Part shown: positions 17,989-31,642 of the stretch, piece after piece
How positions within the stretch are numbered: position 1 is the stretch's first letter
How the letters are laid out: each line of letters starts with the position of its first letter
Origin: Escherichia phage UGJNEcP1
Strand: one strand, 5' to 3'
DNA length: 64,000 nt
Sequence record: OV754623
Position numbers and translations under genes: made by a program
Notes under the pieces: model-generated
Database searches by the model: none
The model's input: the letters and a program-made list of their open reading frames with translations, nothing else
What the model was told of the DNA's origin: nothing

Positions 17989-19314
17989 TCAAAGTGCCTC
18001 CAAGTCTTTAGTGTACTCTGTCACAACATCAGTAGACTTCCAATACTCGTTTTCTTCTTTCTTAGCTTTAGCTTCTTCTGCTAGTTTACGTGCTTCGTCG
18101 GAAGTGATATGGAAGATGTTAAGACCTACCAGTTTATCGACATGTTCTTTATACATTTCGATTTGTGCTAGCTCTTCAGTCAAAGCTTTACGAGTCTTGC
18201 CTTGAATCACAATTTCACCGGCAATAACTTTTTTGATGAAGTGTGCCTTAGCAAAAGCAAGTTTAAATGCTTTTTCAGATTCAAGGATTTTGTTGTCAAT
18301 ACGTTTCTGAACGTAAGTCTTACGGACTTCAACAAAATCTTTGATTAAGTCCACTACGTTATCGTAGACCGCTAATTTACCCTTTTCATTAATCACTGTG
18401 ATGTTTTGTGAACGACGTTCGATGAGACTAAAATCTTTCATGATTTTTTCGTGACGTAGCTCTTCATCATCAGGAAGCGAGTACTCTTTACGGAACTTCA
18501 CCTTAAACCCAAAGCCGTGTTCACCACAATCATCTTCCCATGAGATTAGACCTTTGTCTTCCAACGGGTCAAGAACCTTACTCACATACGTTTCACGGTC
18601 GAATTTATATGGGATTTCAGTTATCTGCATTTGAGTGCGAGATGTGAACTTATATGTTCCGTGAATCTCATAACGCCCATCAACTTCATGTACTTCACCA
18701 CGGAATTCCGGGAATTCAACTTTTGGCTTAGTGACATTTTTACCTTGAAGAGCTTGTAATACAGCCTTTTTAACTGATTTAAAACTATGAGGCAGAATAT
18801 TTGTTGCGTAACCGGTTGCAATACCAGAGACGCCATTCAAAAGAACTGTCGGAATAATAGGAAGATAGAATTTTGGTGGAACGTGTTCTTTATCTTCATG
18901 AGCTGGAGCGTATTCAGTATCTTTATAGACATTATAGAAATTTTTACTTACACGAGCAAAAATATAACGAGATGCTGCAGCTTTTTGGACTGTTCTAGAA
19001 CCAAAGTTGCCCTGGCCGTCTAACAGTGGATAGTTGTTGTTCCATGTGTTAGCCATCAATGCACCTGCATCTTGTGCAGAAGATTCGCCATGATGATAAC
19101 CTAAATCTGCAACACCTCCTGCAATTGACGCAAGTTTATGAAATTTTTCTTTATTACCACGAGCCAAATCTAATGCCCGATGAACAACAAAACGTTGAAC
19201 CGGCTTAAATCCATCAATCATGTTTGGGATTGCACGGTTTTCAACGGTGTACATCGCATATGCTAAGGCTTCGTTATCAATAATACTTTTTAGATTACGA
19301 GAATTCAATTGCAT
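17989..19314 (-). CDS. 52: DNA topoisomerase II medium subunit gp52 (GyrA-like)
   Basis: 441 aa (T4 gp52 442 aa); GyrA-like N-terminal region with DGFKPVQRFVVHRALDL and active-site Tyr region. Confidence 0.9.
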   Translation of the reverse strand: MQLNSRNLKSIIDNEALAYAMYTVENRAIPNMIDGFKPVQRFVVHRALDLARGNKEKFHKLASIAGGVADLGYHHGESSAQDAGALMANTWNNNYPLLDGQGNFGSRTVQKAAASRYIFARVSKNFYNVYKDTEYAPAHEDKEHVPPKFYLPIIPTVLLNGVSGIATGYATNILPHSFKSVKKAVLQALQGKNVTKPKVEFPEFRGEVHEVDGRYEIHGTYKFTSRTQMQITEIPYKFDRETYVSKVLDPLEDKGLISWEDDCGEHGFGFKVKFRKEYSLPDDEELRHEKIMKDFSLIERRSQNITVINEKGKLAVYDNVVDLIKDFVEVRKTYVQKRIDNKILESEKAFKLAFAKAHFIKKVIAGEIVIQGKTRKALTEELAQIEMYKEHVDKLVGLNIFHITSDEARKLAEEAKAKKEENEYWKSTDVVTEYTKDLEAL

Positions 19315-25260: not shown

Positions 25261-26361
25261 TTACGCTGTGAAGATTTTATCCCACATCGCAACAACTGCA
25301 TCTCGGTTATACTTCTTCCATACTGCTTCAGCACGTTTAACTCGAGCTTCGTATGTGTCAGTGAATTCTAATACAGCTTTTGTGTAAAGCGCAACTACTT
25401 CTTTCTTAGGAGTAGAGGAATCAATTTCTACACGCACAGTATCTGGGTCGTATTCGAATGTCGCATGAGGATAATCCTTAAAAACTAACTGGATTACAGG
25501 GACACCTTTAGAGATGGCTTCAATAGAACTATTCTCTACAGTACCTGTGTCAGGACACGTATTAATAAGTGCTTTAGCTGTTTTAAGACGTTCCATAATT
25601 TCACTGTGTGGAGCATCAATAATAACAGGATATTTAGCTGGTGGCGCCCATTTGCTTGGACAGTATCCTGCACCATTTTCGCCTAGTGCTTTAATCGCTT
25701 CAAGAGCAACATCAGTACGACGCATTTTAGTGTCATAACGTTGTGCACTAATAATCAGATCCGTCGCCGGAAGAACTTCTGGCTTTTCAGTCAAACAAAT
25801 AACCGGATAATCTTCGGCTTCAAACAACGGATTTGCTCGCCAATAATCATAATCAATTTTGTCAGTCAGACCTGAAGTCATATAACAATATTTGCGTTCA
25901 AATTCACGGAAGGCTTTAGTAGGAGCATAACTCTTACCACCATTCTTATGAATTTGAATAGTCTGGTCCCAAATTTGAACAATGCCACGAGATACCGGTT
26001 CAAATGGTGTTGCCATAAAATTCTTATGAACTTTAGAGAGACCTGCGTCTTTAATTGCCTGAACGGTTAGTTTAGTCGGTTCCATAGTAACAACAAAATC
26101 GTATTCATGGATGCCGGCTAGTTCAACAATCTTACGAGCCATAGTATAACTCATACCTAGACTGAATTTAGTCAGATGACCAACAGGATGATGATTAACT
26201 TTCCAATCACCAAATGTGTCATTATCAAAACCGATATAATCAATATCAGCACCGATGGACACAAGATATTTCAACACGTTCAAATGAACCGCTTCAAGAC
26301 CACCTTGTACACGGTCAGGATTAAATGGGACTGCACGAGATGGGATAAACATAACTTTCAT
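25261..26361 (-). CDS. putative GT4-like GT-B glycosyltransferase; candidate DNA sugar transferase
   Basis: 366 aa; N-terminal RVQGGLEAVHLNVLKYLVSIG resembles the GT4 GG.E..V..L...L...G motif; C-terminal TGTVENSSIEAISKGVPVIQ resembles the GT4 EGFG...EAMA.G.PVI donor-binding motif. Confidence 0.65.
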   Translation of the reverse strand: MKVMFIPSRAVPFNPDRVQGGLEAVHLNVLKYLVSIGADIDYIGFDNDTFGDWKVNHHPVGHLTKFSLGMSYTMARKIVELAGIHEYDFVVTMEPTKLTVQAIKDAGLSKVHKNFMATPFEPVSRGIVQIWDQTIQIHKNGGKSYAPTKAFREFERKYCYMTSGLTDKIDYDYWRANPLFEAEDYPVICLTEKPEVLPATDLIISAQRYDTKMRRTDVALEAIKALGENGAGYCPSKWAPPAKYPVIIDAPHSEIMERLKTAKALINTCPDTGTVENSSIEAISKGVPVIQLVFKDYPHATFEYDPDTVRVEIDSSTPKKEVVALYTKAVLEFTDTYEARVKRAEAVWKKYNRDAVVAMWDKIFTA

Positions 26362-26387: not shown

Positions 26388-26405
26388 AAGCTCCCGAAGG
26401 AGCTT
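26388..26405 (-). terminator. UUCG-tetraloop hairpin at the 3' end of gene 39
   Basis: minus strand AAGCUCC-UUCG-GGAGCUU overlapping the gene 39 stop. Confidence 0.4.
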
Positions 26406-28221
26406 AGGACATCCATTCTTTACGAAGTTCTGAATCATCACCCATCAACATTTCAAAGAGTTCTTTCCAATTTTCAGGAAGTTTAACTACGTCGTACACA
26501 GGGTTCTGAATCATTTCACGATATTCTGACTTTTCAAGGGAGCCTAATCCCTTGATGTATCTAATACTATGCTTAGGCAGTGTATCTTTAACTTCTTCAT
26601 ACTCAGCTACAGTATAAAACCATTTTTGAGTTTTGCCAATTTGTGCAATAATTACAGGCGTTTTAACAAAACGAATACGTCCTTGTTCAAACAATTCAGG
26701 CCAATTACTAAAGAAAGCAAGCAAAGCCGGATAGATACTTCCAAGACCGTCGTGATCTGCATCGGTCATAATTGCAATATTACGATAGTTCGTATTCTCT
26801 GCCTTTTCACCAAGAATAAGACCTGTGATAGCACAGATATCGAAGAGCTCTTTGTTCTTCATCATATCGGCATATGACATACCCCAGCTATTCATCACCT
26901 TACCACGTAATGGGAATCCACCGTGTAGTTCACGGTCACGAACATCAATGAGATAACCAATTGCCGAATCACCTTCTGTTAAAAACAATGTTGTATCTGC
27001 ATCTTTACCGCATTGGTTAGCTTTAATATGCTTATGAACCTTAGCTTTAGTTGCCTTTTTAGCTGCTTTAGTTTCTGCAGCCTTTTCTGCCGCCAATTTA
27101 CGAGCTAATGCTGCTTCAACAATAGGCATAATCAAGGCTTCGTTTTTAAGAAGTGCCTGAGCAATTTTCTTAGCATCTAATTGGATATGATTACGAATAT
27201 CACCGTACGTTGACGTTAAACGCTCTTTAGTCTGAGAATCAAAACGCATGTTGCTCATGTCTCTAATAAACATCAACATTGTGAGACATTCTTTAACACG
27301 AGCTTTAGTGACTTCAATACCCTTATATTTCTTTTTAATACCTGGCAAAAGATGTTCACAGATATCATCCATTACACATTCAACATGATGACCACCATTT
27401 TTAGTATGGATGTTATTCACATAAGTTAAATGACGGAAGCCATCTGGTGATGTTGTGAATGCTATAGAAACTTTATCATTTTCTTGAATGATGTTATCTT
27501 CACCAAATTGTTTAGCAAATCGTTTAAAATTACCATCAACCTTTTTACCATTAAATGTGAACTTGATATCAGGATAAACGACTGCCAATGTTTGAAGTCG
27601 GTCTAAAGTAATATCTAAATAAATTTGAGATAAATTGTGCTCTTCAAACGAAGAGAAATCAGGAGTGAAGATTACTTTAGTGCCTTTACCTTTAGATTTC
27701 TTAGAAGACCATGATTTGTTTTCCATTCCATTTGAACAGTTAACAGTGATTTCATTTTCGCCATCTGACGTAATGCCTGTAAACAACGTAGAGAAGATAT
27801 TAGTTAAACTACTCCCGACGCCATTCATACCACCAGTCTTGCGTTCAGAGTCATCACCAAAGTTACCACCGGCCTTTGGAATAGTCCAGGCTGCTACAGG
27901 CCCAGGAATTTGTTCACCTGTTTGGTCGGTAACTAAACCTTGAGGAATACCACGTCCGTTATCTTCCACCGAAACTTGATTATTTTTAATTTGCACATCA
28001 ATTTTATTTGCAAACTTAAATGATGTACGAATAGCTTCATCAACCGAGTTGTCAATAATCTCATCGATTAATTTAACCAGACCAGGAACATATTCAACTT
28101 GTTGATATTTACCAAACAAAAAACGCTCATGTGCTTCTTTAGCTGAAGAACCAATATACATACCACTGCGTTTCTTAATATGTTCTACATCCGACAATAC
28201 CTTAATTTCATTTTTAATCAT
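26404..28221 (-). CDS. 39: DNA topoisomerase II large subunit gp39, unsplit (GyrB-like, includes the T4 gene 60 portion)
   Basis: 605 aa single ORF with GHKL ATPase and TOPRIM regions; T4 splits this into 39 and 60. Confidence 0.9.
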   Translation of the reverse strand: MIKNEIKVLSDVEHIKKRSGMYIGSSAKEAHERFLFGKYQQVEYVPGLVKLIDEIIDNSVDEAIRTSFKFANKIDVQIKNNQVSVEDNGRGIPQGLVTDQTGEQIPGPVAAWTIPKAGGNFGDDSERKTGGMNGVGSSLTNIFSTLFTGITSDGENEITVNCSNGMENKSWSSKKSKGKGTKVIFTPDFSSFEEHNLSQIYLDITLDRLQTLAVVYPDIKFTFNGKKVDGNFKRFAKQFGEDNIIQENDKVSIAFTTSPDGFRHLTYVNNIHTKNGGHHVECVMDDICEHLLPGIKKKYKGIEVTKARVKECLTMLMFIRDMSNMRFDSQTKERLTSTYGDIRNHIQLDAKKIAQALLKNEALIMPIVEAALARKLAAEKAAETKAAKKATKAKVHKHIKANQCGKDADTTLFLTEGDSAIGYLIDVRDRELHGGFPLRGKVMNSWGMSYADMMKNKELFDICAITGLILGEKAENTNYRNIAIMTDADHDGLGSIYPALLAFFSNWPELFEQGRIRFVKTPVIIAQIGKTQKWFYTVAEYEEVKDTLPKHSIRYIKGLGSLEKSEYREMIQNPVYDVVKLPENWKELFEMLMGDDSELRKEWMS

Positions 28222-28271
28222 GTTGTCTCCTCGTTATGAAGGTATTCTATCATCCGAAATCTAAAGCAAAA

Positions 28272-28285
28272 AGGGCCGAAGCCCT
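28272..28285 (-). terminator. UUCG-tetraloop hairpin terminator
   Basis: minus strand AGGGC-UUCG-GCCCU followed by UUUUUGCUUUAG. Confidence 0.5.
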
Positions 28286-28728
28286 TATTTAAATTTAATT
28301 TTCTGAAGTGCATCAATTGCAGCTAAACGCCCTTGTTCACTTTTAACTGTAATGACCACATCGCCTGATACGATCACCGAACCATCAACAAATTCTATAG
28401 AGCCTTTTTTGAAATCGACAGCTGTATCTGGTTCCGGAACTTCTTCAAAGAATTTAAATTCTGCACCATAAATCAGAATATCACCTTGCATACTAATGAT
28501 TGTACGTCTAGGTCCATCGGTTTCAGCGGCAATCATTGAAACACCATAACCAATCATCTCTTCTACAATAAAATCTCTTGATAATAAAACTGTATGCAGA
28601 GTAGTGTTAAGACGTTTACCAGTTGTATTAAGAATTCTCAAGAAATTATCTTCTTGACCTTTGATAATACGATATTTCTTACCAACTTCAAAACCTTTAA
28701 AACCTTTAAAAGCCGTATTAAAAGCCAT
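28285..28728 (-). CDS. hypothetical protein (goF/39.x region)
   Basis: 147-aa ORF; no motif recognised. Confidence 0.45.
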   Translation of the reverse strand: MAFNTAFKGFKGFEVGKKYRIIKGQEDNFLRILNTTGKRLNTTLHTVLLSRDFIVEEMIGYGVSMIAAETDGPRRTIISMQGDILIYGAEFKFFEEVPEPDTAVDFKKGSIEFVDGSVIVSGDVVITVKSEQGRLAAIDALQKIKFK

Positions 28729-28730
28729 AA

Positions 28731-28910
28731 TTAACCCTTCTTAAGTAAGTCGTAAAAACCACCGTTCACATGTTTAGGAGCAGAAACCCGACGAGTAGAC
28801 AGACGATGACATTCAGGGCAAACATCGTTTTCTCGTTCAGAAATCCTTTTAATTTTTTCATATTCATGACCACAATCTTCAGATTGACATTTATAGTCGT
28901 ATAACGGCAT
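28731..28910 (-). CDS. FmdB-family zinc-ribbon protein
   Basis: 59-aa [24 protein letters not shown]...CPECH matching the FmdB zinc-ribbon pattern; TAATG overlap with upstream ORF; below track cutoff. Confidence 0.5.
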   Translation of the reverse strand: MPLYDYKCQSEDCGHEYEKIKRISERENDVCPECHRLSTRRVSAPKHVNGGFYDLLKKG

Positions 28911-30191: not shown

Positions 30192-30611
30192 TTATGCAAA
30201 AGATGCTGGACAATATTTTTTGATTTGGAACTCAGGAACTACCATGAACTGACCAGCAAAAACAATGTTATAAAGCTTGACGCCATCTTCAACCCATTGG
30301 TCACTGATGAACCCAGCGACTTGATTCGTTGTCCACGGTGTTCCGTCTGTCGCAGAGGCAATGGTGAACTTGTGGTCTTTTACAACTAAAACCGATCTGC
30401 ACAGTTTCCATTTGAACGCTTTTTCTTCCGGTTCAATGAATTGGCTTTTAACGTAACCAATGTTACCATCGGCGTCACGAACTTTAATTTCGTTACGTCC
30501 AAAAACAGGATCACTCACATAAAGAACTTCAACCAACTTCCCGGCAACTTTAGAGCGAGAAGCATCCGATACGTGTACATAATCACCAATAGAGAGATTT
30601 GCAATATTCAT
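30192..30611 (-). CDS. paralog A of a three-member tandem family (shared C-terminal DQW.EDG domain)
   Basis: 139 aa; C-terminus GFISDQWVEDGVKLYNIVFAGQFMVVPE shared with the two upstream ORFs. Confidence 0.6.
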   Translation of the reverse strand: MNIANLSIGDYVHVSDASRSKVAGKLVEVLYVSDPVFGRNEIKVRDADGNIGYVKSQFIEPEEKAFKWKLCRSVLVVKDHKFTIASATDGTPWTTNQVAGFISDQWVEDGVKLYNIVFAGQFMVVPEFQIKKYCPASFA

Positions 30612-30620
30612 AATAATTCC

Positions 30621-31085
30621 TTAAGCTTTACGAGGAGACACATAGCGAGTGATTTCAGATTCTTCAACAACTCGGAAGTCACCTAAGAATACAATATTGT
30701 ATAGCTTTTTACCATCTTCAACCCATTGGTCGCTGATGAAGCCGCACATAGTATCAGTTTTGCTTGGATAACCGTATTCGTCGATGTAATCAAATTCTTT
30801 ATCGGTTATAAATTCAACGCCTTTGCAAAGGGCCCATTTGAACTGTGTAGTAGGCTCAACGATATCGCTTGAAGCAAATTGGACTCGTATATGTTTTTCC
30901 AGGAATTTAGGACTTACGTAAGCATACTGGGCATCTTGTCCGCCAAAACTCGGGATGATTCGAACTTTAACTTCTTTAACACGTCCCATGCCGTTAGTAC
31001 GAAGCCCTGCTACTTCAACCAGACGACCTGCAGCTTTAGAACGAGAAGCAGGAGATACACGAAGGATTTCACCAATAGTAATCAT
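30621..31085 (-). CDS. paralog B of the tandem family
   Basis: ORF 30621..31148; likely start at MITIGEIL; N-terminus parallels paralog A and C-terminus GFISDQWVEDGKKLYNIVFLGDFRVV. Confidence 0.6.
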   Translation of the reverse strand: MITIGEILRVSPASRSKAAGRLVEVAGLRTNGMGRVKEVKVRIIPSFGGQDAQYAYVSPKFLEKHIRVQFASSDIVEPTTQFKWALCKGVEFITDKEFDYIDEYGYPSKTDTMCGFISDQWVEDGKKLYNIVFLGDFRVVEESEITRYVSPRKA

Positions 31086-31115
31086 AATTTCTCTCTCTTT
31101 GTTTAAATTGAATTC

Positions 31116-31144
31116 ACTATACTCCATCCATCCTTGGATGTACA
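31116..31144 (-). promoter_or_regulatory. early-type promoter in front of paralog B
   Basis: minus strand TGTACA-TCCAAGGATGGATGGAG-TATAGT; spacer nearly identical to the promoter in front of paralog C. Confidence 0.4.
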
Positions 31145-31147
31145 ACA

Positions 31148-31642
31148 TTAATTAAGGATATTAACCACAGCACTACGTGGAACAACACTAAAATCACCAG
31201 CATGAACAACGTTAATAAGTTCAACACCATCTTCAATCCACTGGTCAGTTACCCATCCACTCACTGGACCTGCGAACGGACGTCGAATTGAAACGGCTTT
31301 ACACAACAAATCAGTAGGCTCAATAGGCTTAATCAGAGTACCGTACATACAAGCGATGTCCATATCAAAGTGGAGACCATCTTTAACAGGTGCTTCTTCA
31401 ATCAACAGTTCAAAGTCTGTGCTTGGAAGGGCGGTAGTAGAAATTGTACCGTATGAATTTTTAATTTCTAAGAATAACCAAGGGCCTTCAGCTTGTTTGA
31501 TGAAGTTAACAATAGTGAAACTATTACCTTGAGTGGCACCTAAAATTTCACAAAACTTTTCATAAGCTCGCACTGAAGCACCGTACCAATTGATTTGTTT
31601 TTCGTCTTTCAGGATGTAAGTAGCCGTAGTATTGATATTCAT
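31148..31642 (-). CDS. paralog C of the tandem family
   Basis: 164 aa; distinct N-terminus but shared C-terminal GWVTDQWIEDGVELINVVHAGDFSVVPR. Confidence 0.6.
   Translation of the reverse strand: MNINTTATYILKDEKQINWYGASVRAYEKFCEILGATQGNSFTIVNFIKQAEGPWLFLEIKNSYGTISTTALPSTDFELLIEEAPVKDGLHFDMDIACMYGTLIKPIEPTDLLCKAVSIRRPFAGPVSGWVTDQWIEDGVELINVVHAGDFSVVPRSAVVNILN

Follow-up and report, generated by a model that had tools for sequence, protein, structure and literature searches.

An unsplit topoisomerase II large-subunit gene without the T4 mobA/bypass cassette in the RB69-like Escherichia phage UGJNEcP1

The type II topoisomerase of phages T2 and T6 consists of two subunits, whereas the T4 enzyme consists of three (PMC11461880). 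Moreover, Huang, Wei and Casjens (1985) showed that gp39 of T6 is equivalent to gp39 plus gp60 of T4. The premise of the initial annotation of the DNA studied here, namely that the GyrB-like subunit of T4 is split into genes 39 and 60 by the insertion of a homing endonuclease and that gene 60 harbors a 50-nt translational bypass, is borne out by the T4 record and the literature. The mobA insertion is covered in reviews, and both the GenBank record of RB69 and the record of PhAPEC2 note the T4 insertion that splits the subunit. Structures of the split and the unsplit enzyme were released in 2024, with the unsplit T6 enzyme determined by cryo-EM (PMC11461880), and ATP-dependent relaxation and decatenation in conjunction with gp52 have been shown biochemically for T6 and T4 (PMC11461880).

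MobA/bypass cassettes have been described in 28 genomes that fall into six clades, each of which comprises near-identical 'parental' relatives devoid of the cassette (Manning & Atkins, bioRxiv 10.1101/2022.08.31.505936). The genus Mosigvirus is not named among these 28 genomes, and the terms RB69 and Mosigvirus do not occur in the text of that study. We found the T4-type insertion, consisting of mobA and the bypass, in 43 out of 50,697 phage records, and each of the 43 is T4 or a close Tequatrovirus relative. As is already known, T4-like phages normally have the unsplit gene, and the split-and-bypass arrangement of T4 is the exception.

The stretch of DNA analyzed here, referred to as the window, comprises 64,000 nucleotides (64 kb) of the ~170-kb genome of Escherichia phage UGJNEcP1 (OV754623). 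The gene under study and the positions therein that correspond to the two interruption sites of T4 are as follows.

26404..28221, minus strand: gene 39, topoisomerase II large subunit, unsplit, 605 aa (six-frame ORF listing).
26797..26802, minus strand: equivalent of the T4 gene 39/mobA insertion point, codons 474-475 (Ala-Glu, ...LGEKA/ENTNY...), in a continuous frame.
26743..26748, minus strand: equivalent of the gene 60 take-off/resume site, Gly492 (GGT) and Leu493 (CTT), which are adjacent (coding gap 0).

The open reading frame starts with ATG and contains no internal stop codon in the six-frame ORF listing. On the DNA level, it is 100% identical to gene 39 of Escherichia phage UGJNEcP2 (OV877511.1), a Mosigvirus to which the window is likewise 100% identical, and ~98% identical to the gene of many other Mosigvirus (RB69-like) phages, where it is annotated as DNA topoisomerase II large subunit. 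We estimate a probability of about 97% that 26404..28221 is an intact gene 39 from a T-even phage of the RB69 type, encoding the GyrB/ParE-like large subunit of the phage type IIA topoisomerase, which is translated conventionally.

For the comparison with T4, gp39 (516 aa) and, after removal of the 50-nt gap, gp60 (160 aa) were built from the T4 reference record and aligned to the ORF by BLASTP. Residues 1-473 of T4 gp39 align to residues 1-474 of the ORF with 79% identity (E = 0), and residues 27-159 of T4 gp60 align to residues 473-605 with 87% identity (E = 4e-88). The two alignments tile the ORF from residue 1 to 605 with an overlap of two residues, and the gene is likewise colinear with the unsplit gp39 of T2 and RB69. 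Thus, the initial annotation, which had described a single unsplit gene of 605 codons covering both T4 parts, stands with regard to position, length and coverage, and the region equivalent to gp60 is present at the C-terminus. Nothing in the ORF corresponds to the last 43 residues of T4 gp39 (474-516) or to approximately the first 26 residues of gp60 (1-26); these T4 residues are the insert-derived C-terminal extension (CTE) of gp39 and N-terminal extension (NTE) of gp60, respectively (bioRxiv 10.1101/2022.08.31.505936).

At the first interruption site, multiple alignment indicates that T2, RB69 and the window gene are all uninterrupted across the T4 gene 39/mobA split point. The position of this site, codons 474-475 in the window gene, agrees with the published insertion site at residues 466-473 in RB14 numbering (Manning & Atkins, bioRxiv 10.1101/2022.08.31.505936). 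At the second site, the window gene reads GAC GGT CTT GGA and T2 reads GAT GGT CTA GGA, whereas T4 reads GAT GGA [TAG...50 nt...GGA] TTA GGT. Accordingly, the window gene contains neither a stop codon nor a 50-nt gap nor a matched GGA pair at the bypass position, since Gly492 (GGT) is directly followed by CTT GGA AGT. Neither strand of the 64-kb window contains the 50-nt coding gap of T4 or the core of its hairpin, TAGCCTTCGGGCTA.

RNA folding is in agreement with these observations. A segment of 101 nt centred on the bypass site of the window gene yielded z = +0.72 relative to shuffled sequences and did not form a take-off stem-loop, and the equivalent site of T2 yielded z = +0.22. The T4 positive control yielded z = -2.48, and the take-off stem-loop GGAUAGCC-UUCG-GGCUAUC was recovered. 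Rfam evidently holds no model for the bypass RNA, since the T4 control itself gave no match at the gathering threshold; the window gave one sub-threshold snoRNA-like match (E = 0.99), which we regard as noise. Likewise, tblastn with the intact 272-aa MobA protein of HY01 against the 64-kb window gave a best E value of 2.3, and the corresponding searches with the T4 CTE and NTE returned nothing, with best E values of 0.2-2 (MobA included). Taken together, the take-off and landing codons, the stop codon and the hairpin are all missing at the site, which confirms the claim of the initial annotation that no bypass element is present. With a colinear gene and no element of the cassette in the 64-kb window, this genome does represent the uninterrupted state, as had been proposed.

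Alternatively, the single ORF could result from a 'hit and run', in which a MobA cassette once split gene 39 of this phage and was later excised, so that the ORF was re-formed. Such a re-fusion, with CTE and NTE retained, has been proposed for a clade of Aeromonas phages (Manning & Atkins, bioRxiv 10.1101/2022.08.31.505936), and in AV118, a sister Mosigvirus, a different HNH endonuclease located beside gene 39 indicates that endonucleases do visit the locus. However, the product of the window gene and T2 gp39 are equal in length (605 aa), and the multiple alignment with T2 and RB69 gp39 reveals no indel over residues 460-505. The same junction is found in close relatives, as a probe of 161 nt that covers both interruption sites of T4 matched 162 phage records, all of which (162/162) are uninterrupted and carry the region in a single piece. 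Moreover, similarity to the T4 CTE and NTE occurs nowhere in the window, which argues against hit-and-run excision, where both would remain. We therefore consider a former insertion to be very improbable and favor an intact gene 39.

This reading is further supported by the domain composition of the predicted protein and by the presence of its partner gene in the window.

27808..28062, minus strand: GHKL ATPase motifs, placed by the positions of the N-box (EIIDNSVDE, aa 54-62), G1 (DNGRGIP, aa 87-93) and G2 (GGMNGVGSS, aa 130-138).
26962..26976, minus strand: TOPRIM catalytic-Glu motif EGDSA, aa 416-420, counterpart of T6 E415.
26749..26763, minus strand: TOPRIM acidic, metal-binding motif DADHD, aa 487-491, directly 5' of the T4 bypass position.
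17989..19314, minus strand: gene 52, topoisomerase II medium (GyrA-like, DNA-cleaving) subunit, 441 aa (tblastn with T4 gp52).

An N-terminal GHKL ATPase domain is indicated by the Pfam model HATPase_c, which matches residues 47-189 with 44 bits (cut-off 26.4), and a transducer domain by DNA_gyraseB with 53.4 bits (cut-off 27). In addition, the window protein matches the T6 gp39 chain 8ylu_C across residues 1-605. Since both Pfam models pass their cut-offs and the T6 chain is matched over the full length, the ORF is a real homologue and not a chance product. The artificially fused T4 gp39-gp60 chain 8yo3_C is matched as well, and the matches to eukaryotic topoisomerase II, ParE and GyrB are far weaker than those to the T6 and T4 chains. 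The model TOPRIM_C scored 27.8 bits, slightly under its cut-off of 29, and Toprim-core was not reported for the window protein; the assignment of a C-terminal TOPRIM domain is therefore based on motifs and on the full-length chain matches. EGDSA provides the catalytic Glu and DADHD the DxD(xD) signature, the latter corresponding to D486/D488/D490 of the T6 enzyme (PMC11461880), and PLRGK, another TOPRIM motif, is likewise found in the window protein.

The QTK loop is present as QTKERL at aa 330-335. Next to this loop, at codons ~326-328 of gp39, the T4 reference (NC_000866) reads NMRLIRQTKE, whereas T2, RB69, AV118 and the window read NMRFDSQTKE. On the DNA level, CGATTGATTCGTCAA in T4 as compared to CGATTTGACTCTCAA in T2 resembles a compensated pair of -1/+1 frameshifts, and the T4 version may either go back to an error in early sequencing or be genuinely peculiar to T4.

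The ortholog of gp52 is 88% identical to T4 gp52 over 441 aa (tblastn), and its gene is located ~7 kb from gene 39. That the gene instead encodes a host-type topoisomerase IV subunit ParE, as the parE and gyrB names in OV877511.1 and several other automated annotations would have it and as the type IIA B-subunit fold family common to both proteins might allow, is even harder to credit than a re-fusion, given that T6 gp39 scores 1161 bits against 168 bits for bacterial ParE (E = 4e-48), that the protein is 79-96% identical to gp39 of T4, T2 and RB69, and that the T-even synteny rIIA - rIIA.1 - 39 - goF - cef - motB is kept around a gene whose partner is the phage gp52.

From these features and by analogy to the solved T6 enzyme, we propose how the window gene may work. 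A single gp39 polypeptide would combine the N-terminal GHKL ATPase, the transducer and the C-terminal TOPRIM domain, and would assemble with the gp52 encoded in the window into a (gp39)2(gp52)2 heterotetramer that carries out ATP-dependent DNA strand passage. What sets T4 and its closest relatives apart is a MobA homing-endonuclease cassette of ~1.05 kb in the TOPRIM region, the insertion of which divided the gene into genes 39 and 60 and introduced the 50-nt coding gap bypassed by ribosomes. The gene in the window presumably never received this cassette, or retains no trace of it, and would thus be translated conventionally. Judging from the identity of 82% to T2 gp39 and the full-length T6 match, the window gp39 is predicted to relax and decatenate DNA together with gp52.

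The gene is flanked by several potential regulatory elements, and further genes lie in its neighborhood.

28227..28232, minus strand: Shine-Dalgarno-like GAGGAG, 5 nt before the ATG (read from the sequence), which may serve in ribosome binding.
28244..28270, minus strand: middle-promoter-like element consisting of the MotA-box-like TTTGCTTTA, 12 nt and TAGAAT (read by eye).
28271..28286, minus strand: upstream GC-rich UUCG hairpin with a T-run, terminator-like, between the ORF005c-like gene and gene 39 (terminator scan).
26388..26405, minus strand: downstream UUCG hairpin, terminator-like, overlapping the stop codon of gene 39 (terminator scan; equivalent to a PhAPEC2 terminator).
25261..26361, minus strand: ORF003c-like gene, 366 aa, between gene 39 and rIIA.1 and immediately 3' of gene 39, 99% identical to RB69 ORF003c.
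28285..28728, minus strand: counterpart of RB69 ORF005c, 147 aa, upstream of gene 39 in the place of T4 39.1, with no Pfam match.
28731..28910: zinc-ribbon 39.2/FmdB-like protein, 59 aa, next after the 147-aa ORF.
30192..30611 and 30621..31148, minus strand: tandem ORFs of 139 aa and 175 aa, MotB-like according to the RB69 and PhAPEC2 annotation.

The consensus of T4 MotA-dependent middle promoters fits the arrangement TTTGCTTTA-N12-TAGAAT upstream of gene 39. The motifs GCTTTA and TA.AAT show no variation among the window, RB69, T4 and T2, and the sequence suggests that the arrangement is a putative MotA-dependent middle promoter. A scan for sigma-70 promoters yielded 14 sites as compared to 15.2 expected from shuffled sequences; since this count is not above the shuffles, no sigma-70 site is claimed. 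A terminator is annotated in PhAPEC2 at the same position as the upstream hairpin, and T4 and T2 preserve the hairpin through compensatory changes. The stem is GGGC...GCCC in Mosigvirus and GGCC...GGCC in T4/T2, and pairing is retained. The block 28244..28286, comprising the hairpin, GCTTTA and the TA.AAT -10 element, is shared by Mosigvirus and T4/T2 despite a different upstream gene.

RB69 ORF003c has been proposed to encode an arabinosyl-hmC DNA transferase (PMC6024577). Its counterpart at 25261..26361 gave no Pfam match, and no gene occupies this position in either T4 or T2. The two MotB-like ORFs of 139 and 175 aa have the C-terminal block GFISDQWVEDG.KLYNIVF.G.F.VV.E in common and are apparent tandem paralogs.

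The 162 uninterrupted Mosigvirus-like records raise the possibility, which we regard as unlikely, that this genus is effectively immune to MobA and not merely unexposed to it. According to Manning & Atkins, the site in gene 39 of T2 that MobA nicks lies within the homR region, ~20 nt 5' of the point where the bypass is inserted. Over the 40 nt upstream of this insertion point, the window is 82.5% identical to T2, with seven differences that are all synonymous. One route to immunity could be these seven synonymous differences in the stretch that contains the nick site. According to published reports, phages of the RB69 type do not recombine with those of the T4 type and carry arabinosyl-hmC in their DNA; a second route could be that this DNA modification and the recombinational isolation from T4-like phages block homing. 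It is tempting to speculate that the adjacency of ORF003c together with recombinational isolation explains why the cassette is not seen in the genus. If immunity did apply, the target of MobA would be represented in the window by a naturally resistant allele of gene 39.

A different arrangement is found in AV118 (OR352948.1; L007 1778-4799). In comparison with 26410-28221 of the window, the flanks are 94-96% identical and gene 39 only 80%. The AV118 gene is unsplit and encodes 607 aa; it is preceded by a 135-aa ORF with NPFYG-type repeats and followed by a 116-aa HNH endonuclease ORF and then an ORF of 143 aa. The arrangement has the appearance of an exchange of the entire gene 39 allele associated with a homing endonuclease, which would be another way for an endonuclease to exploit the locus.

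As a discovery, the correct reading of the window gene carries little weight, since an unsplit gene 39 is the standard T-even-like state and has long been documented. The value of the gene lies solely in adding another 'parental' comparator to the study of the MobA/bypass mobile element and in a correction of its name. In OV877511.1, gene 39 bears the label 'parE: DNA topoisomerase 4 subunit B'; elsewhere it is called 'DNA gyrase subunit B'. Such automated parE and gyrB names are misleading for an ortholog of the phage gp39, and the label 'parE / topoisomerase IV subunit B' of the source record is to be corrected to phage gp39.

The region from gene 39 to gene 60 comprises 2871 nt in T4 as opposed to 1818 nt for the window gene. 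The additional 1053 nt of T4 consist of the 43-aa CTE on gp39, the mobA (pseudo)gene, the ~26 unique N-terminal residues of gp60 and the 50-nt gap. This gap is accompanied by the GGA-UAG take-off site, the stem-loop and the GGA landing site. None of these T4 parts occurs in the window. Common to both phages are the catalytic motifs and the hairpin and promoter elements upstream of gene 39.

The gp39 of T2 is unsplit, has the same length as the window protein and is 82% identical to it from end to end; on the DNA level the identity is ~75% overall, and neither sequence is interrupted at the bypass position. Unlike the window, T2 and T6 contain no ORF003c-like gene downstream of gene 39. The T6 protein represents the unsplit large subunit for which structures are available (8YLU, 8YOD and others), and it is the 8YLU chain that the window protein matches. 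The gp39 of the Mosigvirus RB69 (NP_861694.1) is also unsplit and, from end to end, 96% identical to the window protein on the amino-acid level. With 606 aa in RB69 and 605 aa in the window, the two proteins differ by a one-residue indel and otherwise by point substitutions only, and the gene order of the window, rIIA, rIIA.1, ORF003c, 39, ORF005c, 39.2-like, goF and cef, is that of RB69.
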